Below, piece by piece: positions 51,496 through 62,848 of a stretch of DNA of 64,000 nt. Origin of the DNA: a phage; sequence record PZ452594.1; one strand, written 5' to 3'. How positions within the stretch are numbered: position 1 is the first letter of the stretch; each line of letters opens with the position of its first letter. A model generated the notes under the pieces. That model had not been told where the DNA came from and ran no database searches. It worked only from the letters and a program-made list of their open reading frames with translations. The translations under genes and the position numbers were made by a program.

Positions 51496-54400
51496 ATGGC
51501 CGAGATTAAAAGAAAGTTCAGAGCAGAAGATGGTCTGGACGCAGGTGGTGATAAAATAATCAACGTAGCTTTAGCTGATCGTACCGTAGGAACTGACGGT
51601 GTTAACGTTGATTACTTAATTCAAGAAAACACAGTTCAACAATATGATCCAACTCGTGGATATTTAAAAGATTTTGTAATCATTTATGATAACCGCTTTT
51701 GGGCTGCTATAAATGATATTCCAAAACCGGCAGGAGCTTTTAATAGCGGACGCTGGAGAGCATTACGTACCGATGCTAACTGGATTACGGTTTCATCTGG
51801 TTCATATCAATTAAAATCCGGTGAAGCTATTTCGGTTAACACCGCAGCTGGAAATGACATCACGTTTACTTTACCATCTTCTCCAATTGATGGTGATACT
51901 ATCGTTCTCCAAGATATTGGAGGAAAACCTGGAGTTAACCAAGTTTTAATTGTAGCTCCAGTGCAAAGTATTGTAAACTTCAGAGGCGAGCAAGTACGTT
52001 CAGTACTAATGACTCATCCAAAGTCACAGTTAGTTTTAATTTTTAGTAATCGTCTGTGGCAAATGTATGTTGCTGATTATAGTAGAGAAGCTATAGTTGT
52101 AACACCAGCAAGTCTCTATCAGGCGCAATCTAATGATTTTATCGTACGTAGATTTACTTCTGCTGCACCAATTAATGTTAAACTTCCAAGATTTGCTAAT
52201 CATGGCGATATTATTAATTTCGTTGATTTAGATAAACTGAATCCACTTTATCATACAATTGTTACTACATACGATGAAACGACTTCAGTACAAGAAGTTG
52301 GAACTCATTCCATTGAAGGCCGTACATCGATTGACGGTTTCTTGATGTTTGATGATAATGAGAAATTGTGGAGATTGTTTGACGGGGATAGTAAAGCGCG
52401 TTTACGCATTATAACGACTAATTCTAATATTCGTCCAAACGAAGAAGTTATGGTATTTGGTGCGAATAACGGAACAACTCAAACAATTGAGCTTCAGCTT
52501 CCAACTAATATTTCTGTTGGTGATACTGTTAAAATTTCCATGAATTACATGAGAAAAGGACAAACAGTTAAAATCAAAGCTGCCGGTGAAGATAAAATTG
52601 CTTCTTCAGTTCAATTACTGCAATTCCCAAAACGCTCAGAATATCCGCCTGAAGCTGAATGGGTTACAGTCCAAGAATTAGTTTTTAACGGTGAAACTAA
52701 TTATGTACCAGTTTTAGAACTTGCTTATATTGAAGATTCTGATGGAAAATATTGGGTTGTACAGCAAAACGTTCCAACCGTAGAAAGAGTAGACTCTTTA
52801 AATGATTCTACTAGAGCAAGATTAGGCGTAATTGCTTTAGCTACACAAGCTCAAGCTAATGTCGATTTAGAAAATTCTCCACAAAAAGAATTAGCAATTA
52901 CTCCAGAAACATTAGCTAACCGTACTGCTACTGAAACTCGTAGAGGTATCGCAAGAATAGCAACTACTGCTCAAGTGAATCAGAACACCACATTCTCTTT
53001 TGCTGATGACCTTATCATCACTCCTAAAAAGCTGAATGAAAGAACTGCTACAGAAACTCGCAGAGGTGTCGCAGAAATTGCTACGCAGCAAGAAACTAAT
53101 ACAGGTACTGATGATACTACAATCATTACTCCTAAAAAGCTTCAAGCTCGTCAAGGTTCTGAATCATTATCTGGTATTGTAACTTTTGTATCTACGGCGG
53201 GTGCTACTCCAGCTTCTAGTCGTGAATTAAATGGTACAAATGTTTATAATAAAAACACTAATAACTTAGTTGTTTCACCTAAAGCCTTGGATCAGTATAA
53301 AGCTACTCCAACACAGCAAGGTGCAGTAATTTTAGCAGTTGAAAGTGAAGTAATTGCTGGACAAAGTCAGGAAGGATGGACAAATGCTGTTGTAACGCCA
53401 GAAACGTTACATAAAAAGACATCAACTGATGGAAGAATTGGTTTAATTGAAATTGCTACGCAAAGTGAAGTTAATACAGGAACTGATTATACTCGTGCAG
53501 TCACTCCTAAAACTTTAAATGACCGTAAAGCAACTGAAAGTTTAAGTGGTATAGCTGAAATTGCTACGCAAGTTGAATTCGACGCAGGCGTCGACGATAC
53601 TCGTATCTCTACACCATTAAAAATTAAAACCAGATTTAATAGTACTGATCGTACTTCTGTTGTTGCTCTATCTGGATTAGTTGAATCAGGAACTCTCTGG
53701 GACCATTATACACTTAATATTCTTGAAGCAAATGAGACACAGCGTGGTACACTTCGTATAGCTACACAAGTTGAAGCTGCTGCAGGAACATTAGATAATG
53801 TTTTAATAACTCCTAAAAAGCTTTTAGGTACTAAATCTACTGAAGCACAGGAAGGTGTTATTAAAGTTGCAACCCAGTCTGAAACTGTGACTGGAACGTC
53901 AGCGAACACTGCTGTATCTCCAAAAAATTTAAAATGGATTGTGCAGAGTGAACCTACTTGGGCAGCTACTACTGCGATAAGAGGTTTTGTTAAAACTTCA
54001 TCTGGTTCAATTACATTCGTTGGTAATGATACAGTCGGTTCGACCCAAGATTTAGAACTGTATGAGAAAAATAGCTATGCGGTATCACCATATGAATTAA
54101 ACCGTGTATTAGCAAATTATTTGCCGTTAAAAGCAAAAGCTGCTGATACAAATTTATTGGATGGTCTAGATTCATCTCAGTTCATTCGTAGGGATATTGC
54201 ACAGACGGTTAATGGTTCACTAACCTTAACCCAACAAACGAATCTGAGTGCCCCTCTTGTATCATCTAGTACTGCTACGTTTGGTGGTTCAGTTTCGGCA
54301 AATAGTACATTAACTATTTCTAATACTGGAACGACTTCTTCTCGATTTACATTTGAGAAAGGTCCTGCTTCTGGTAGTAATGCTGATTCTGCATTGTATG

Positions 54401-55368
54401 TTCGTGTATGGGGTAATAAGTACAGCGGCGGTTCTGATGTAACTCGTGCAACGATTATAGAATTCTCTGATGCTACCGGCTCTCATTTCTATTCTCAAAG
54501 AGATACGTCAAATAATGTGTTGTTCAACATTTCAGGTACGATGCAATCAGTCAACGCTAACGTTCGTGGTGTTCTGAACGTTACAGGTGTCTCAACGTTT
54601 AATAGTTCAGTTACAGCCAATGGTGAATTCATTAGCAAGTCTGCAAATGCTTTCAGAGCAATAAATGGTGATTATGGATTCTTTATCAGGAATGATGGCG
54701 GTAGCACATATTTTATGCTTACTGCATCTGGTGATCAGACTGGCGGATTTAATGGATTACGTCCATTATCAATTAATAATGCATCTGGCCAAGTAACGAT
54801 TGGTGAAAGCTTAATCATTGCCAAAGGTGCTACTATAAATTCAGGTGGTTTGACTGTTAACTCGAGAATTCGTTCTCAGGGTACTAAAACATCTGATTTA
54901 TACACCCGTGCACCAACATCTGATACTGTAGGATTCTGGTCAATTGATATTAACGATTCAGCCACTTATAACCAGTTTCCGGGTTATTTTAAAATGGTTG
55001 AAAAAACTAATGAAGTGACTGGGCTTCCATACTTAGAACGTGGAGAAGAAGTTAAATCTCCTGGTACACTGACTCAGTTTGGTAACACACTTGATTCGCT
55101 TTACCAAGATTGGATTACTTATCCAACGACGCCAGAAGCGCGTACCACTCGCTGGACACGTACATGGCAGAAAACCAAAAACTCTTGGTCAAGTTTTGTT
55201 CAGGTATTTGACGGAGGTAACCCTCCTCAACCATCTGATATCGGTGCTTTACCATCTGATAATGCTACAATGGGGAATCTTACTATTCGTGATTTCTTGC
55301 GAATTGGTAATGTTCGCATTGTTCCTGACCCAGTGAATAAAACGGTTAAATTTGAATGGGTTGAATAA
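51496..55368 (+). CDS. 34: Long tail fibre proximal subunit gp34 (1290 aa)
   Basis: 1290-aa ORF with internal ~40-aa tandem repeats; TATAAATA 25 nt upstream. Confidence 0.97.
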   Translation: MAEIKRKFRAEDGLDAGGDKIINVALADRTVGTDGVNVDYLIQENTVQQYDPTRGYLKDFVIIYDNRFWAAINDIPKPAGAFNSGRWRALRTDANWITVSSGSYQLKSGEAISVNTAAGNDITFTLPSSPIDGDTIVLQDIGGKPGVNQVLIVAPVQSIVNFRGEQVRSVLMTHPKSQLVLIFSNRLWQMYVADYSREAIVVTPASLYQAQSNDFIVRRFTSAAPINVKLPRFANHGDIINFVDLDKLNPLYHTIVTTYDETTSVQEVGTHSIEGRTSIDGFLMFDDNEKLWRLFDGDSKARLRIITTNSNIRPNEEVMVFGANNGTTQTIELQLPTNISVGDTVKISMNYMRKGQTVKIKAAGEDKIASSVQLLQFPKRSEYPPEAEWVTVQELVFNGETNYVPVLELAYIEDSDGKYWVVQQNVPTVERVDSLNDSTRARLGVIALATQAQANVDLENSPQKELAITPETLANRTATETRRGIARIATTAQVNQNTTFSFADDLIITPKKLNERTATETRRGVAEIATQQETNTGTDDTTIITPKKLQARQGSESLSGIVTFVSTAGATPASSRELNGTNVYNKNTNNLVVSPKALDQYKATPTQQGAVILAVESEVIAGQSQEGWTNAVVTPETLHKKTSTDGRIGLIEIATQSEVNTGTDYTRAVTPKTLNDRKATESLSGIAEIATQVEFDAGVDDTRISTPLKIKTRFNSTDRTSVVALSGLVESGTLWDHYTLNILEANETQRGTLRIATQVEAAAGTLDNVLITPKKLLGTKSTEAQEGVIKVATQSETVTGTSANTAVSPKNLKWIVQSEPTWAATTAIRGFVKTSSGSITFVGNDTVGSTQDLELYEKNSYAVSPYELNRVLANYLPLKAKAADTNLLDGLDSSQFIRRDIAQTVNGSLTLTQQTNLSAPLVSSSTATFGGSVSANSTLTISNTGTTSSRFTFEKGPASGSNADSALYVRVWGNKYSGGSDVTRATIIEFSDATGSHFYSQRDTSNNVLFNISGTMQSVNANVRGVLNVTGVSTFNSSVTANGEFISKSANAFRAINGDYGFFIRNDGGSTYFMLTASGDQTGGFNGLRPLSINNASGQVTIGESLIIAKGATINSGGLTVNSRIRSQGTKTSDLYTRAPTSDTVGFWSIDINDSATYNQFPGYFKMVEKTNEVTGLPYLERGEEVKSPGTLTQFGNTLDSLYQDWITYPTTPEARTTRWTRTWQKTKNSWSSFVQVFDGGNPPQPSDIGALPSDNATMGNLTIRDFLRIGNVRIVPDPVNKTVKFEWVE
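52890..53940 (+). repeat. Intragenic tandem repeats in gene 34 (about 7-8 units of ~40 aa)
   Basis: Repeated units ITP(E/K)xL...ATE(T/S)xxG(I/V)AxIATQ...; DNA strings actcctaaaaagct and gaaactcg(t/c)agaggt recur. Confidence 0.6.
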
Positions 55369-55376
55369 GAGGTATT

Positions 55377-56492
55377 ATGGAAAAATTTATGGCAGAGTTT
55401 GGACAAGGATATGTCCAAACGCCATTTTTATCGGAAAGCAATTCAGTAAGATACAAAATAAGCATAGCGGGTTCTTGCCCGCTTTCTACAGCAGGACCAT
55501 ACGTTAAATTTCAGGATAATCCTGTAGGAAGTCAAACATTTAGCGCAGGTCTTCATTTAAGAGTTTTTGACCCTTCCACGGGAGCATTAGTTGATAGTAA
55601 GTCATATTCTTTTTCGACTTCAAATGATACTACATCTGCTGCTTTTGTTAGTTTCATGAATTCTATTTCAAGCAATAGACTTGTTGCTATATTAACTAAC
55701 GGAAAGGTTAATTTTCCTCCTGAAGTAGTATCTTGGTTAAGAACCGCCGGAACGTCTGCCTTTCCATCTGATTCTATATTGTCAAGATTTGACGTATCAT
55801 ATGCTGCTTTTTATACTTCTTCTAAAAGAGCTATTGCATTAGAGCATGTTAAACTGAGTAATAGAAAAAGCACAGATGATTATCAAACTATTTTAGATGT
55901 TGTATTTGACAGTTTAGAAGACGTCGGAGCTACCGGGTTTCCAAGAAGAACGTATGAAAGTGTTGAGCAATTTATGTCGGCAGTCGGTGGAACTAATAAC
56001 GAAATTGCGAGATTGCCAACTTCAGCTGCTATAAGTAAATTATCTGATTATAATTTAATTCCTGGTGATGTTCTTTATCTTAAAGCACAGCTATATGCTG
56101 ATGCTGATTTACTTGCTCTTGGAACTACAAATATATCTATCCGTTTTTATAATGCATCTAATGGATATATTTCCTCGACACAAGCTGAGTTTACTGGGCA
56201 AGCTGGGTCATGGGAATTAAAGGAAGATTATGTAGTTGTTCCAGAAAATGCAGTAGGATTTACGATATATGCACAAAGAACTGCACAAGCTGGTCAAGGC
56301 GGAATGAGGAACTTAAGCTTTTCTGAGGTATCAAGAAATGGCGGTATTTCAAAACCTGCTGAATTTGGCGTCAACGGTATTCGTGTTAATTATATCTGTG
56401 AATCTGCTTCACCTCCGGATATAATGGTACTTCCTACACAAGCATCGTCTAAAACTGGTAAAGTGTTTGGGCAAGAATTTAGAGAAGTTTAA
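55377..56492 (+). CDS. 35: Long tail fibre hinge protein gp35 (371 aa)
   Basis: 371-aa ORF between 34 and 36. Confidence 0.9.
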   Translation: MEKFMAEFGQGYVQTPFLSESNSVRYKISIAGSCPLSTAGPYVKFQDNPVGSQTFSAGLHLRVFDPSTGALVDSKSYSFSTSNDTTSAAFVSFMNSISSNRLVAILTNGKVNFPPEVVSWLRTAGTSAFPSDSILSRFDVSYAAFYTSSKRAIALEHVKLSNRKSTDDYQTILDVVFDSLEDVGATGFPRRTYESVEQFMSAVGGTNNEIARLPTSAAISKLSDYNLIPGDVLYLKAQLYADADLLALGTTNISIRFYNASNGYISSTQAEFTGQAGSWELKEDYVVVPENAVGFTIYAQRTAQAGQGGMRNLSFSEVSRNGGISKPAEFGVNGIRVNYICESASPPDIMVLPTQASSKTGKVFGQEFREV

Positions 56493-56497
56493 ATTGA

Positions 56498-56515
56498 GGG
56501 AGCCTTCGGGTTCCC
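56498..56515 (+). terminator. Rho-independent terminator after gene 35
   Basis: gggagcc ttcg ggttccc followed by ttttt; separates 35 from the gene 36 late promoter. Confidence 0.7.
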
Positions 56516-56523
56516 TTTTTCTT

Positions 56524-56531
56524 TATAAATA
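56524..56531 (+). promoter_or_regulatory. Late promoter motif upstream of gene 36
   Basis: Exact TATAAATA 24 nt before ATG 56555, directly after the gene 35 terminator. Confidence 0.65.
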
Positions 56532-56554: not shown

Positions 56555-57220
56555 ATGGCTGATTTAAAAGTAGGTTCAACAACCGGAGGCTCTGTCATTT
56601 GGCATCAAGGAAATTTTCCATTGAATCCAGCCGGTGACGATGTACTCTATAAATCATTTAAAATATATTCAGAATATAATAAACCACAAGCTGCTGATAA
56701 CGATTTCGTTTCTAAAGCTAATGGTGGTACTTATGCATCAAAGGTAACATTTAACAGTGGCGTGCAAATACCATATGCTGTAAACAATACAAACCAAAGC
56801 GGTATTTATCCTGGCAATGGTGATGCTGCTACTTTTGATACAGCAAATATTGATATTGTTTCATGGTATGGCATTGGTTTTAAATCATCACAAGGATCTG
56901 CAGGTAGAACTGTTGTTGTTAACACTCGTACCGGTGATATCAGCACTAAAGGTGGTATTTATGCAATCGGACCCGTCCGTTCTAACGTTACCGCTCCAGT
57001 TGCAGCAAATGACCTTACTAGAAAGGACTATGTTGATGGAGCAATAAATACTGTTACGGCAAATGCGAACTCTAGAGTGTTGCGTTCTGGCGACACTATG
57101 ACAGGTAATTTAACCGCACCAAACTTTTTCTCGCAGAATCCTGCATCTCAACCTTCACACGTTCCACGATTTGACCAAATCGTAATTAAGGATTCTGTTC
57201 AAGATTTCGGCTATTATTAA
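56555..57220 (+). CDS. 36: Long tail fibre distal subunit gp36 (221 aa)
   Basis: 221-aa ORF with own late promoter motif; precedes gene 37. Confidence 0.9.
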
Positions 57221-57228
57221 GAGGACTT

Positions 57229-60200
57229 ATGGCTACTTTAAAACAAATACAATTTAAAAGAAGCAAAACCGCAGGTGCACGTCCTGCTGCTTCAGTATTA
57301 GCCGAAGGTGAATTGGCTATAAACTTAAAAGATAGAACAATTTTTACTAAAGATGATTCAGGAAATATCATTGATCTAGGTATTGCTAAAGGCGGTCAAA
57401 TTGATGGAAATGTAACTATTGATGGAACTTTACGCGTCAATGGACCAATAAACAACTTTGGAAATTTTTCTACAAATGGTACTATTACGGCAAGTAATAT
57501 TGTTTCTGCTACAGTATTCAGATCAACATCCGGTTCATTTTATACAAGAGCAATAAATGATACTGCAAATGCCCATCTTTGGTTTGAAAATACAAATGGC
57601 TCAGAACGTGGCGTTTTATATTCAAAACCGCAGTCTGAAAATGAAGGCGTAATTACAATGCGTGTTCGTCAAGGAACCGCTGCGGGAGCTCAAAATTCAG
57701 AATTTCATTTCATTTCTACTGATGGCGGTATCTTCCAGGCACGTAAGTTAACTGCTTTAACTTCTATTAGTACACCAACTATTAGTGTTAATTTAATTAA
57801 TCATGATTCTAAATCATTTGGACAATACGATTCACAATCTTTGGTTAACTATGTTTATCCTGGAACTGGTGAAACAAATGGCGTAAACTATCTTCGTAAA
57901 GTTCGCGCTAAGTCCGGTGGTACAATTTATCATGAAATTGTTACTGCCCAAACAGGCCTGGCTGATGAAGTTTCTTGGTGGACTGGTAATACACCGTTAT
58001 TTAAACTATATGGTATTCGTAACGACGGTAGAATGATTATTCGCAATAGCTTGGCCATTGGTACTGTGACGCAAGGGTTTCCGTCAAGCGATTATGGAAA
58101 TGTTGGGGCACTAGGAAATATATTTCTTGCTTTAGGTGATAATGGAACTGGTCTAGTTTATAGAAAAACCGGCGTATTTGATTTTGTTGGTTCTGGTTTA
58201 TCTTTGGCATCTATTACACCTGATAGTTTCCGTAGTACCCGTAAAGCAATTTTTGGTCGTTCCGAGGACCAAGGTACAACATGGATTATGCCTGGCACTA
58301 ATGCTGCTTTCTTGTCTGTTCAAACACAAGCTGATACTAACAATGCTGGAGACGGGCAAACTCATATTGGGTACAATGCTGACGGTAAAATGAGTCATTA
58401 TTTCCGCGGTAAAGGCAAAACTAATATTAATACTCAGGAAGGTGTGGACGTTAACCCTGGTATTTTAAAATTGGTAACTGGTTCTAATAACGTACAGTTT
58501 TATGCTAACGGAACAGTATCTTCAATACAAAGAATTAAATTTGATAATGGATTAGTTCTTACTGGTGCTAGACCCGATGGTATTCAACTTGACGCTCCTA
58601 CAACAACAGATGGCACTAAAACTATATTGTGGGCCGGTGGTACTCGCGCAGGTCAGAATAAAAGTTATGTATCTATCAAAGCATGGGGTAATGCCTTTAA
58701 CGCATCTGGCGATCGTTCCCGTGAAACAGTTTTTGAGGTAGGTGATGGGCAAGGTTACCATTTTTATTCTCAACGTGTAGCTCCTGCGCCTGGTTCGACT
58801 GTCGGGCCTATTCAACTACGAGTTAATGGTGGTTTATTAACTTCAGGTAGTATTGTTGCTTCTGGTTCTATTACAACCGAATCTTCTTTGAGTGTTAATA
58901 ATGGCATGTCAGTAAACGGTGAATTAAAGGTTGGTGGTACCGCAGATAACTTCCGTATTTGGAACGCTAAATACGGCGCTATTTTCCGTCGTTCAGAAGA
59001 TTCCTTGTATATAATTCCTACAGCCATTAACCAAGGCGAAAGCGGTGGAATAAGCGATATAAGACCGTTCAGTATTAACCTTGGCACTGGCTCTGTTGTA
59101 ATGGGTAACCATACTCAAGCGGGTAAAAACCTTTTCACGGTTGATAACGTTTCTAAATTAGTACAAACTGATGTTCGTTTCCGTGTTAACATGGATTCCG
59201 ACGGTATTGTTTTGAATGCTTCTTCTCAAGCAGCGTCTAACTTTATCCAAGGACGTAAAGCGGATGTTACAAAATGGTATCTCGGTATTGGCGACGGTGG
59301 TAACGTTGTTCGTTTACATAACTATACCTATTCCCACGGTATTGCATTAAACTCTGATACTGTAGATATTACTAAGCCTCTTAAAATTAATAATATTCGA
59401 ATTGGTACAGATGGCAACATCACAGGTGGTACTGATAATTTTGCCAATTTAAATACAACGTTAAACAATAAAGTCAATGTTGGTGGTTGGTCAGGCGGAG
59501 CTACAACTGGGTGGTATAAGTTTGCGACAGTTAATATTCCTCAATCTACTGGAACAGTATCATTTAAAATATATGGTGGTTCAGGATTTAATTTTAAAAG
59601 TTATGGGCAAGCTTCTGTCGCAGAAATAATTCTTAGAACTGGAAATAATCCTAAAGGACTTAACGCTACATTATGGAACAGAACTTCTGAAGCATTTTCA
59701 CAAATTGCTACAGTTAACACAAGCAATGATACATATGACGTTTATGTTTATGTGGGAGGATATTCAAATGCTTTAGTCGTCGAATATTCATGTACCAGTA
59801 ATAGTACAGTAACTGTTGTTGGTGTTAATGGAGGAATTCAACCTATTGTTGAAACACTTCCAGAAGGTCATGTAGTAGGTAAAACTGTAAGATTATTGAA
59901 TAACATCGATGGAATGTTTGCTGCTGGTGAATCTGATGTTGTTACTCGTGGTGAATTTGTTACCAATAACCAAAAAGGTTTACGCATTAAATCTAGAGGC
60001 AACGATATTGATTCTAATGCTGTTATTATTCGAAATGATGGTGGAAGTTTTTATATTCTAGCTACAGATAAGAATACATCATCAAATCCTGATGCTGCAT
60101 CAGGTAATTGGAATAATTTAAGACCTTTCTCCATTAATATGGCTGATGGTCGCGTTGGTATGAACCATGGTCTAAATATTACCGGCGGTGGCTTGAATGT

Positions 60201-61071
60201 TACTGGTGGCTTGAATGTTACTAGCGGTAATACTAGTTTAGGTAATATCTCGTCTCGTGTAGTAGCAGGTTGGCGAGGAGCGTCTGGTTGGGCTGATAAC
60301 TCGGATACAATGAAATCTAAAATCACCTTTATGGCAGACCATGGGGATTTATCTAATTCAGGCAGTTATTATCCTATTGTAGGTGCATACAGCAACTATG
60401 GTTCAGCAGGTTATCGTCAAACCTTTGAATTTGGATGGGTCGGCTCTGGTACCACCGCTGGGTGGCGAGAAGGTATTATTCGTATTCGCGGAGATAATGC
60501 TAACGGCCAGCAAGCAAGATGGCGCTTTACAATGAACGGTATTTTAGATTGCCCTGGTAAAGTACAGATGCCACAAACAAGCGCATTTGGTGTCAATACA
60601 ACAAATGGATGGGGTGGTAACTCAATTGCGATAGGTGATAGCGATACTGGTTTTAGACAAGTAGGCGATGGGCTTTTAGAAACATGGGCAAACAACGTTA
60701 AGGTCGTTCGTTATACTTCAAGTGAAGTTTATTCCGAGAAAAACGTCAACGCTCCTAACGTTTATATTCGTTCTGATATTCGTTTGAAATCTAATTTCAA
60801 GCCTATTGAAAACGCGCTCGAAAAGGTTGAACAACTTGATGGTTTAATCTATGACAAAGCTGAATATATAGGCGGTGAACCTGTCCAAACAGAAGCAGGT
60901 ATTATAGCTCAAACGTTGCAAGACGTTTTACCAGAAGCCGTCCGTGAAACAGAAGACAGCAAGGGTAATAAAATACTCACTGTTTCTTCTCAAGCCCAGA
61001 TTGCTCTTCTGGTTGAAGCTGTGAAAACACTTTCTTCTCGTGTAAAAGAACTTGAATCTAAACTTATGTAA
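57229..61071 (+). CDS. 37: Long tail fibre distal subunit gp37 (1280 aa) with C-terminal intramolecular chaperone domain
   Basis: N-terminus [22 protein letters not shown] (conserved gp36-binding region); C-terminal ~100 aa begin at SDIRLK (Ser-Lys dyad signature of S74-type auto-processing chaperone domains). Confidence 0.93.
60190..60225 (+). repeat. Perfect in-frame 18-bp tandem duplication in gene 37
   Basis: ggcttgaatgttact at 60190-60204 and again at 60208-60222 (period 18), encoding [12 protein letters not shown]. Confidence 0.7.
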
Positions 61072-61072
61072 A

Positions 61073-61090
61073 AGAGGGCTTCGGCCCTCT
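61073..61090 (+). terminator. UUCG-tetraloop hairpin after gene 37
   Basis: agagggc ttcg gccctct 2 nt after gene 37 stop. Confidence 0.6.
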
Positions 61091-61101
61091 AAGGATTTTT
61101 A

Positions 61102-61887
61102 ATGGCAATTGTAGGTGTTCCTGGCTGGATTGGCGAATCTGCCGTGAATGAAACTGGACAACGCTGGATGGATGCTGCAATGAGAGCTGTTCGTGTTTCA
61201 GTTCCTGGTTGGATGAGCTCAATGGCTGGACAATCTAAAGAAGTATATTACAGCATTGGTGCTAGTAATTCTTATAATAAAGACACGTTAATAAACTGGA
61301 TAAAAGCCCAAGGCAGTACTCCTGTTGTTATTACTATTACAGGAAATATTGTTTCTCAATCTACTGGTGTTCCATGCTTAGATTTTCCTAGCTCATTAAC
61401 TAATGCATACGTGACACTTAATATCAATTCAGGCGTGCATGTTTGGGGCCGTGGCGGGAATGGCGGAAATAACTCTGCCGGTGGAGCAGGAGGAACTGCA
61501 ATAAATAATGGAATTGGAACTAGATTGCGTATTAACAACAATGGTGTTATCGCAGGAGGCGGTGGCGGCGGTGGAGGCGGATATTATTCTCCTTTTTCAC
61601 AAATGAAATTGACTTTTGGCGGTGGCGGCGGTCGTCCATTTGGTGCTGCTGGCGGGTCTGCTAATATGGAACAGGGCGCTACTGCTGGTACTATTTCTGC
61701 ACCTGGTAAAGGGTCTGTCAATGGTATCTATAATGGCGGGAATGGCGGTGATGCTGGTGCCGCAGGTGGTAAATGTAATATTCGTGGGCAAGGATCAGAA
61801 TATAACGGCGGTGCTGCTGGTAAGGCTGTTACTGGTAATGCTCCAACTTGGACTAAAGTTGGTACAATATATGGTTCAAGAGTATAA
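61102..61887 (+). CDS. 38: gp38 receptor-recognising adhesin, T2-type with glycine-rich motifs (261 aa)
   Basis: 261 aa; N-terminus MAIVGVPGWIGESAVNETGQRWMDAAMRAV; multiple poly-Gly motifs (GGGGGGGGG, GGGGGRP, GGNGG) separated by variable segments. Confidence 0.85.
   Translation: MAIVGVPGWIGESAVNETGQRWMDAAMRAVRVSVPGWMSSMAGQSKEVYYSIGASNSYNKDTLINWIKAQGSTPVVITITGNIVSQSTGVPCLDFPSSLTNAYVTLNINSGVHVWGRGGNGGNNSAGGAGGTAINNGIGTRLRINNNGVIAGGGGGGGGGYYSPFSQMKLTFGGGGGRPFGAAGGSANMEQGATAGTISAPGKGSVNGIYNGGNGGDAGAAGGKCNIRGQGSEYNGGAAGKAVTGNAPTWTKVGTIYGSRV
61430..61760 (+). repeat. Glycine-codon (GGN) repeat tracts inside gene 38
   Basis: Runs such as ggaggcggtggcggcggtggaggcgga and ggcggtggcggcggtcgt encoding poly-Gly motifs; tract boundaries approximate. 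Confidence 0.6.
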
Positions 61888-61918: not shown

Positions 61919-62575
61919 ATGGCAGCACCTAGAATATCATTTTCGCCCTCTGATATTCTGTTTGGTGTTCTAGATCGCTTGTTCAAAGATAATGCTACCG
62001 GGAAGGTTCTTGCTTCCCGAGTAGCTGTCGTAATTCTTTTATTTATGATGGCGATTGTTTGGTATAGGGGAGATAGTTTCTTTGAGTACTATAAGCAATC
62101 AAAGTATGAAACATACAGTGAAATTATTGAAAAGGAAAGAAATGCACGCTTTGAATCTGTCGCCCTGGAACAACTCCAGATAGTTCATATATCATCTGAG
62201 GCAGACTTTAGTGCGGTGTATTCTTTCCGCCCTAAAAACTTAAACTATTTTGTTGATATTATAGCATACGAAGGAAGATTACCTTCAACAATAACTGAAA
62301 AATCACTTGGAGGATATCCTGTTGATAAAACTATGGATGAATATACAGTTCATTTAAATGGACGTCATTATTATTCCGATTCAAAATTTGCTTTTTTACC
62401 AACTAAAAAGCCTACTCCCGAAATAAACTACATGTACAGTTGTCCATATTTTAATTTGGATAATATCTATGCTGGAACGATAACCATGTACTGGTATAGA
62501 AATGATCATATAAGTAATGACCGCCTTGAATCAATATGCGCTCAGGCGGCCAGAATATTAGGAAGGGCTAAATAA
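61919..62575 (+). CDS. t: Holin T (218 aa)
   Basis: 218 aa, single N-terminal TM helix (VAVVILLFMMAIVWY) and large periplasmic domain. Confidence 0.95.
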   Translation: MAAPRISFSPSDILFGVLDRLFKDNATGKVLASRVAVVILLFMMAIVWYRGDSFFEYYKQSKYETYSEIIEKERNARFESVALEQLQIVHISSEADFSAVYSFRPKNLNYFVDIIAYEGRLPSTITEKSLGGYPVDKTMDEYTVHLNGRHYYSDSKFAFLPTKKPTPEINYMYSCPYFNLDNIYAGTITMYWYRNDHISNDRLESICAQAARILGRAK

Positions 62576-62848
62576 TTATTTGTTCGTATACATCTCTAGA
62601 TATCGATATACACCCTCAAAACCCTCGTTGAATTCGTCGATGAGGGTTTTCTTATCTTCTTGAGTTAATTCAGAAACAATTTTACGGAATGAATTCTGAT
62701 TTAACTTTCTACCTTCATGCGTTACTCCAATCTCATTCAGAAATGCAATAAAATTAGCACGATTCTCAACAATATCTTCTCTGGAAAATTTAATCAAAAT
62801 AGACGCAACAGTAATAATTTCACGAACTGTATCAATGTTTTTATTCAT
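62576..62848 (-). CDS. asiA: AsiA anti-sigma-70 factor (90 aa)
   Basis: 90 aa, N-terminus MNKNIDTVREIITVASILIKFSREDIVENRANFIAFLNEIG. Confidence 0.95.
   Translation of the reverse strand: MNKNIDTVREIITVASILIKFSREDIVENRANFIAFLNEIGVTHEGRKLNQNSFRKIVSELTQEDKKTLIDEFNEGFEGVYRYLEMYTNK

Follow-up and report, generated by a model that had tools for sequence, protein, structure and literature searches.

The window analysed here, a 64,000-nucleotide stretch of phage DNA (sequence record PZ452594.1), shares 95-96% nucleotide identity with Tequatroviruses and carries the gene order 34-35-36-37-38-t. Its host-range module occupies 57229-61887, to the base as given beforehand in the original prediction, and the ORF list of the window places genes 37 (57229-61071) and 38 (61102-61887) there. 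To the right, the module is followed by the holin gene t, which is 95-100% identical at the nucleotide level to all compared relatives. No minus-strand ORF within genes 37 and 38 exceeds 92 aa, and we took these ORFs to be chance. The features of the locus are:

56524..56531, plus strand: T4-type late promoter box TATAAATA, exact match, upstream of gene 36
56555..57220, plus strand: gene 36, distal hinge connector that joins the gp37 N-terminus (ORF; Pfam Phage_T4_gp36, E 7.9e-39)
57229..61071, plus strand: gene 37, precursor of the distal subunit of the long tail fibre (1280 aa, 136.5 kDa)
57229..60771, plus strand: predicted mature gp37 shaft, aa 1-1181, 125.6 kDa, ending ...NAPNVYIR (end placed by alignment with S16 and fPS phages)
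60772..61068, plus strand: C-terminal intramolecular chaperone/self-cleaving domain (Peptidase S74, PF13884), aa 1182-1280, 99 aa, 10.9 kDa; cleaving role predicted
60772..60789, plus strand: SDIRLK, predicted Ser1182/Lys1187 catalytic dyad motif, with Lys five residues after Ser (from the sequence)
60898..60912, plus strand: GIIAQ, aa 1224-1228, corresponding to GVIAQ, the conserved trimerisation motif in IMC domains (sequence and alignment)
61073..61090, plus strand: AGAGGGC-UUCG-GCCCUCU, hairpin in the 37/38 intergenic gap with a 7-bp stem and a UUCG loop (folding energy -13.4 kcal/mol, z = -2.1)
61091..61095, plus strand: Shine-Dalgarno AAGGA, 6 nt ahead of the gene 38 ATG
61102..61887, plus strand: gene 38, adhesin at the tail-fibre tip (261 aa, 25.8 kDa)
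61102..61227, plus strand: attachment domain at the gp38 N-terminus, aa 1-42, containing Trp9, Trp22 and Trp37 (Pfam Gp38_N)
61447..61830, plus strand: gp38 aa 116-243, Gly-rich motifs interspersed with hypervariable segments, the putative receptor-binding polyglycine sandwich region with a T6-like (Tsx) set (Gly runs; alignment)
61919..62575, plus strand: holin gene t, conserved right-hand flank (Pfam Phage_holin_T, E 1e-116)

The late-promoter role of TATAAATA is well established in T4, and the box at 56524 is the only sensible promoter for the late operon 36-37-38: no second copy was found from this box through the end of gene 38, and a scan for sigma-70 promoters returned 22 sites against 22.8 expected by chance, no excess. 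A late transcript of 36-37-38(-t) thus probably starts at 56524. Gene 37, with its IMC domain at the end, is directly followed by gene 38, the gap from stop to start being 30 nt. The hairpin within this gap has the same sequence in seven of eight phages, T6 having a hairpin of different sequence, and it is annotated as a potential terminator in the T2 record X04442.

Over its length, gp37 matches PHROG 1699, 'long tail fiber protein distal subunit' (E = 0), and it carries the Pfam domains Gp34_trimer, gp37_trimer and Peptidase_S74. The last of these falls within the tail of about 99 aa that the original prediction had seen begin at SDIRLK (60772) and had read as an intramolecular chaperone; the tail indeed starts at S1182 and measures 99 aa, with PF13884 covering aa 1182-1239 over its full profile (1-58 of 58, E 8.4e-15, 55.2 bits with a cut-off of 22). 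Furthermore, two solved structures align with the tail, namely 6F45_A (S16 gp37, whose own tail is autocleaved) and 7DC3 (the ICA domain of MYRF), and GIIAQ of the tail falls on GVIAQ of 7DC3 and GLIAQ of 6F45_A; GVIAQ is the trimerisation motif of IMC domains (PMC3742440). The spacing of S1182 and K1187 is that of S587 and K592 in MYRF, where mutation of the Ser/Lys dyad blocks cleavage (PMC3742440). Together with the dyad, these matches support an S74-type intramolecular chaperone at the gp37 C-terminus.

The same comparisons suggest where the chain may be cut. The sequence VYIR|SD.RLK is invariant across four phages (the window phage, Bas39, T2 and T6), and S16 gp37 is cut directly before the homologous Ser (PMC7917993), with the sites aligning as DLNVS^SDRRIKK in S16 and DVYIR^SDGRLKI in fPS phages. 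By homology, gp37 would therefore cleave itself before S1182, and the mature end ...NVYIR would offer the docking face for gp38.

It is hardly credible that the C-terminal domain instead stays in the virion, with gp38 serving only in assembly, as it does in T4, and the receptor contacted by gp37 itself. Both the dyad and GIIAQ are preserved, and in the close homologues T2 and S16 gp37 is cleaved and gp38-capped, as documented in the literature. The T4-type module (T4, FelixPlatter/Bas40) occupies the equivalent slot between gene 36 and t; its gp37 has a receptor-binding needle tip built in and lacks an S74 tail, whereas gp37 of the window has one. A PDB search returned no match between gp37 of the window and the needle tip of T4 gp37, and gp38 showed no similarity to the T4-type gp38 chaperone of about 183 aa, either by BLASTP against FelixPlatter gp38 (E = 22) or as a Pfam match. 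On these two results we rejected gp38 as a chaperone only, in agreement with the original prediction that the module differs from that of T4.

The alternative to a chaperone, an adhesin of the T2/T6/S16 type, is supported by the family-level comparisons of gp38. The protein matches PF05268 (GP38) over the whole profile (1-218 of 218, E 3.5e-72), PF21721 (Gp38_N, E 8e-18) and PHROG 2056 (E 2e-105); it aligns with the S16 adhesin 6F45_D over its full length and through all Gly motifs (E 3e-49, 49% identity), and with 9V85, the receptor-binding domain of PP01 gp38 (E 1e-33). Matching two solved gp38 structures at full length settles the family. In addition, W9, W22 and W37 each align with a conserved Trp of S16 gp38, and three N-terminal Trp of gp38 are known to plug into the gp37 tip (PMC6851490), so that the docking residues of a T2/T6-type adhesin, as had been proposed from the sequence, are kept.

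As also anticipated, the 261-aa gp38 carries several poly-Gly motifs beside variable segments. Five Gly runs are present (aa 118-122, 127-131, 152-160, 173-177 and 212-216), the longest with nine G consecutively, and 36% of the residues in aa 111-245 are glycine. For shuffled gp38, the meaningful statistic is the longest Gly run and not the run count: a run of at least nine Gly arose in 5 of 20000 shuffles, while the number of runs of at least three Gly (2 observed, shuffle mean 2.3) is uninformative. The ORFs of gp37 and gp38, the S74 match, and the Gly runs and Pfam matches of gp38 are thus far beyond chance. In an alignment with T2 and T6, conserved Gly columns border the variable blocks. 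AlphaFold2 run on the single gp38 sequence without an alignment gave an unusable model (mean pLDDT 29.6), and the three-layer polyglycine-II sandwich fold that we infer for gp38 therefore rests on homology to solved structures, at 49% identity to 6F45_D.

The original prediction held that the variable segments between the Gly motifs determine the receptor, a view that the literature bears out (including bioRxiv 10.64898/2026.04.02.716166), and proposed comparing them with adhesins of known specificity. This comparison points to Tsx. The window gp38 is 100% identical at the protein level to that of at least 15 deposited phages, including FriedrichMiescher (Bas39), whose primary receptor is Tsx (BASEL supplementary table), and JK38, whose receptor was mapped as Tsx/Kdo by RB-TnSeq (bioRxiv 10.64898/2026.04.02.716166). 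Over aa 141-240 it is 70-90% identical to T6, which binds Tsx, and 30-75% to T2, and one hypervariable set is common to nearly all Tsx binders described in the literature. Because gp38 is identical to the Tsx-dependent adhesins of Bas39 and JK38, and because its hypervariable segments are T6-like, the window phage almost certainly adsorbs through Tsx. T2, a FadL/OmpF binder, has hypervariable segments only 30-50% identical over aa 161-240 of gp38, and its receptor is accordingly a different one.

We considered whether a phage of this shared architecture might have a primary receptor other than Tsx, or not Tsx alone, reaching OmpA, OmpF, FadL or LPS through the gp37 tip or through an unnoticed feature. 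In favour of this, OmpA or other receptors can be gained through a few substitutions in T6-like adhesins, OmpA recognition having been added in PST by small changes in the hypervariable segments, and a single Q206L in RB68 moves specificity from OmpF to OmpW. The gp37 tip (aa 1101-1181), moreover, differs from those of Bas39 and slur04. Against this, gp38 is without any substitution relative to Bas39 and JK38 over all 261 aa, the Tsx dependence of both having been mapped experimentally, and a gp38 swap alone is enough to change porin specificity (bioRxiv 10.64898/2026.04.02.716166). We thus regard such a receptor as very unlikely and retain Tsx as the predicted primary receptor.

Comparison with individual phages shows which parts of the module are shared. 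Bas39, slur02/slur04, JK38, JK1 and teqsoen have, besides the 100% identical gp38, the same 37/38 junction, gene order and holin flank; in gp37, identity to slur04 is 94-100% for aa 101-350 and falls to 10-50% for aa 600-1150, and identity to Bas39 is 10-60% across much of the shaft. T6 shares the architecture and the cleavage motif with the window, yet its gp37, at 994 aa, falls far short of the window gp37 in length and is for the most part unrelated to it past residue 50; the chaperone domain of T6 is the longer one, with no more than 34-42% identity, and T6 gp38 reaches only 20-50% identity over aa 21-100. T2 has a near-identical 99-aa chaperone domain, 95-100% identity over the first 40 aa of gp38, and an identical intergenic hairpin and ribosome-binding site, with a gp37 of 1341 aa compared to 1280 aa in the window. 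The Salmonella phage S16, known from its gp37(3)-gp38 complex (6F45), shares the Trp prongs, the Gly-rich motifs and the SD..K cleavage motif; it binds Salmonella OmpC, its loops differ from those of the window gp38, and its chaperone domain has 113 aa rather than 99.

The sole new feature of the module is gp37 itself, a previously unseen mosaic whose best full-length relatives reach 88% protein identity. We followed up three of the segments that were poorly matched by the seven aligned relatives: 58850-59150 has relatives at 96.7% nucleotide identity in SholemSchwarzbard and TB004, 60400-61101 has one at 93.9% in Lutter, and dips such as that at 58000-58200 are covered at 94-98% by slur04. 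Among these no truly novel gp37 segment was found, each of the three having a relative in a known phage; such a patchwork is what recombination ordinarily produces in T-even fibre genes. In the ~80 residues leading up to the cleavage site the sequence is Lutter-like. This tip (aa 1101-1181) shares no more than 46-76% identity with those of phages that have an identical gp38, so that the fibre context may conceivably affect binding. There is a slim chance that the Lutter-like tip alters the presentation of gp38 or adds a secondary contact (e.g., LPS), giving a host range unlike that of phages with the same gp38.

Overall, we read the locus, with a probability of roughly 93%, as a Tequatrovirus cassette for the distal long tail fibre and its adhesin, built to the common T2/T6/S16 design, with S74 self-cleavage, a gp38 cap and Tsx as primary receptor; nothing in the sequence speaks against it. 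Gp37 would be made as a 136-kDa precursor, in which the 99-aa S74 chaperone would drive trimerisation of the beta-helical shaft and then remove itself, Ser1182 and Lys1187 cutting the R1181-S1182 bond. The three ...NVYIR ends would form a flat hydrophobic tip, onto which, at the 3:1 stoichiometry expected by homology, one gp38 monomer would dock via Trp9, Trp22 and Trp37. At the distal end of gp38, the Gly-rich motifs would build the polyglycine-II sandwich, and the hypervariable loops between them would bind Tsx, the outer-membrane nucleoside channel.

The gp37/gp38 module is a real, standard and already well-known T2/T6-type tail-fibre tip. T2 is the phage in which both gp37 processing and the adhesin gp38 were discovered, reportedly in 1986 and 1987, and the crystal structure from S16 was reported in 2018. 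The original prediction was silent on two points, namely that this biology is long established and that the receptor could be read directly, as Tsx. The module matters little beyond annotation and raises no new question. Its mosaic gp37, joined to a conserved, exchangeable gp38 cassette, offers a further example of recombination-driven evolution of T-even fibre genes, and the predicted use of Tsx is informative on host range and on routes of resistance (loss of tsx) should the phage be used in therapy or biocontrol.

We find the long-tail-fibre operon at the right end of the window, in the gene order canonical for T4-like coliphages and downstream of DNA (30000-54999) with 95-96% identity to Tequatroviruses (slur02/slur04, JLBYU24 and Sf22 among others). 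The positions originally predicted for gp37 and gp38 coincide exactly with their ORFs:

51496-55368, gp34
55377-56492, gp35
56524-56531, T4 late-promoter box TATAAATA, immediately 5' of gene 36
56555-57220, gp36
57229-61071, gp37 (1280 aa)
61073-61090, hairpin between genes 37 and 38 (7 bp, UUCG loop, -13.4 kcal/mol)
61102-61887, gp38 (261 aa)
61919-62575, holin t

No second TATAAATA box was found from 56524 to the end of gene 38. The box directly follows a UUCG-loop hairpin of 9 bp in the 35/36 gap (56496-56517); a 14-bp hairpin on the + strand (62618-62650), just beyond the end of holin t and within the minus-strand asiA ORF (62576-62848), may be a terminator of the convergent late transcript. 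Separately, residues 58-127 of the hinge protein gp35 match a domain with a eukaryotic name that is unexpected in a phage fibre hinge (Pfam PF15711, ILEI/FAM3 'interleukin-like EMT inducer'; E 1.4e-8; 35.5 bits, cut-off 27).

Within this operon, gp37 and gp38 are a module of the T2/T6/S16 design, in which gp38 is the tip adhesin, and not of the T4 design, in which gp37 carries the needle tip itself and gp38 is an assembly chaperone. Specifically, over its whole length gp38 can be aligned with the S16 adhesin of known crystal structure (6F45_D; E 3e-49, 49% identity), and it shows no similarity to a T4-type gp38 chaperone (E = 22), bearing out the original prediction of a T2/T6-type tip adhesin that differs from T4 gp38; among solved structures, gp37 did not match the T4 needle tip. 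Furthermore, gp38 aligns with the receptor-binding domain of PP01 gp38 (9V85, identified in PMC12892980; E 1e-33). Pfam Gp38_N covers its residues 1-42 (E 8e-18) and Pfam GP38 its residues 47-261 (E 3.5e-72), and its PHROG assignment is 2056, 'tail fiber protein; host specificity' (E 2e-105). Its Trp9, Trp22 and Trp37 line up with three conserved residues of S16 gp38, the tryptophans by which that adhesin is plugged into the tip of the gp37 trimer (PMC6851490). Glycine runs occupy residues 118-122, 127-131, 152-160 (nine consecutive), 173-177 and 212-216, a run of at least nine arising in 5 of 20000 shuffles of gp38. All features of the Gp38 adhesin family that can be addressed from sequence are present; a single-sequence AlphaFold2 prediction had a pLDDT of 29.6, too low to model the fold.

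At the C-terminus of gp37, Pfam Peptidase_S74 ('chaperone of endosialidase') spans residues 1182-1239 over the whole profile (E 8.4e-15; 55 bits, cut-off 22). The C-terminal 200 residues can be aligned both with the distal fragment of gp37 from Salmonella phage S16 (6F45_A, E 5e-11) and with human MYRF at its autoprocessing ICA domain (7DC3). Ser1182 and Lys1187, five residues further on, match the Ser/Lys dyad whose mutation abolishes MYRF cleavage, and GIIAQ (1224-1228) corresponds to GVIAQ, a conserved trimerisation motif (PMC3742440); the sequence-addressable hallmarks of the S74 chaperone family are likewise all found. In S16 gp37 the bond immediately before the homologous serine is cut (DLNVS^SDRRIKK), and an equivalent cut has been proposed for Yersinia T4-like phages (DVYIR^SDGRLKI) (PMC7917993). 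By homology, gp37 would be cut between R1181 and S1182, and the released domain would therefore begin at SDIRLK (residue 1182, nt 60772), in agreement with the original prediction, leaving a 99-aa piece of 10.9 kDa and a predicted mature shaft of 125.6 kDa. VYIR-SD.RLK is unchanged in all four phages compared (this one, FriedrichMiescher, T2 and T6), despite an otherwise unrelated gp37 shaft in T6.

Every part of this interpretation was known already. PMC3157838 summarises both the proteolysis that T2 gp37 undergoes (Drexler et al. 1986) and its capping with the gp38 adhesin, and also describes the modular alternation of Gly-rich motifs and hypervariable segments in gp38; the adhesin concept goes back to Riede et al. 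1987, as cited in PMC6851490, and the S16 structure, with chaperone autocleavage and the polyglycine sandwich, is on record too (PMC7917993, PMC6851490). The fibre-tip module is real, rightly interpreted and ordinary.

The receptor, left open by the original prediction, can be named. At least 15 deposited phages have a gp38 protein 100% identical to this one, among them FriedrichMiescher (Bas39), for which the BASEL collection table gives Tsx as primary receptor (PMC8594841 supplement), and JK38, assigned Tsx/Kdo by RB-TnSeq in a 2026 study that also switched porin specificity by swapping gp38 from HVS2 (a hypervariable segment) onward alone (bioRxiv 10.64898/2026.04.02.716166). Comparison of the variable segments with adhesins of known specificity, the check proposed earlier, points the same way: gp38 of T6, the classical Tsx phage, is 65% identical overall and 70-90% identical over residues 141-240, which contain the main hypervariable segments, whereas that of T2 (FadL/OmpF) is 95-100% identical over the first 40 residues and 30-50% over 161-240. 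Trojet et al. found one hypervariable-segment set common to nearly all Tsx-binding gp38s (PMC3157838). The identity to Bas39 and JK38 together with the T6-like segments strongly favours Tsx as primary receptor; Tsx dependence, gp37 cleavage and virion composition are all predictions from sequence here.

When gene 37 was scanned by 100-nt sliding comparison against seven relatives, the nearest relative changed sharply along its length:

57400-57700, IME339/IsaacDaniel type, about 100% identity
57600-58300, slur04 type, 94-100%
58500-58800, G8/T2 type, 97-100%
59100-60400, G8/IME339 type, 95-100% in most 100-nt bins (85% at 60000-60099)
60900-61100, conserved across all seven except T6
61300-61800, slur04/Bas39 type, 99-100%

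Two stretches had no good match among the seven; SholemSchwarzbard and TB004 match 58850-59150 at 96.7% identity, and Lutter matches 60400-61101 at 93.9%. These close relatives, together with a best full-length protein match of 88%, argue that the gp37 allele is, as far as these comparisons reach, a new combination of known pieces. Recombination is well known to shuffle the fibre genes of T-even phages in this way. It is very improbable that the unusual Lutter-like gp37 tip under a slur04-type gp38 has a phenotypic consequence. Gene 36 is mosaic too, 56700-57000 dropping to 56-92% nucleotide identity against the seven relatives between flanks 91-100% identical to six (T6 left out). Residues 427-652 of gp37 (58507-59184) are paralogous to the C-terminal region of gp34 in the proximal half-fibre, matching 4UXE and 5NXF (E about 1e-16) and Pfam Gp34_trimer; this half-fibre duplication is already known.

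Between the two tip genes, the hairpin is followed by AAGGA and then the gene 38 ATG. The junction (61040-61125) extends from the 3' end of the chaperone-coding sequence through the hairpin and ribosome-binding site into gene 38, of which it takes in the first 25 nt. Every base of it agrees in seven of the eight phages compared, although the flanks diverge; T6 has a hairpin too, but of another sequence. The junction has the look of a conserved linker, one that might anchor recombination when adhesin cassettes are swapped.
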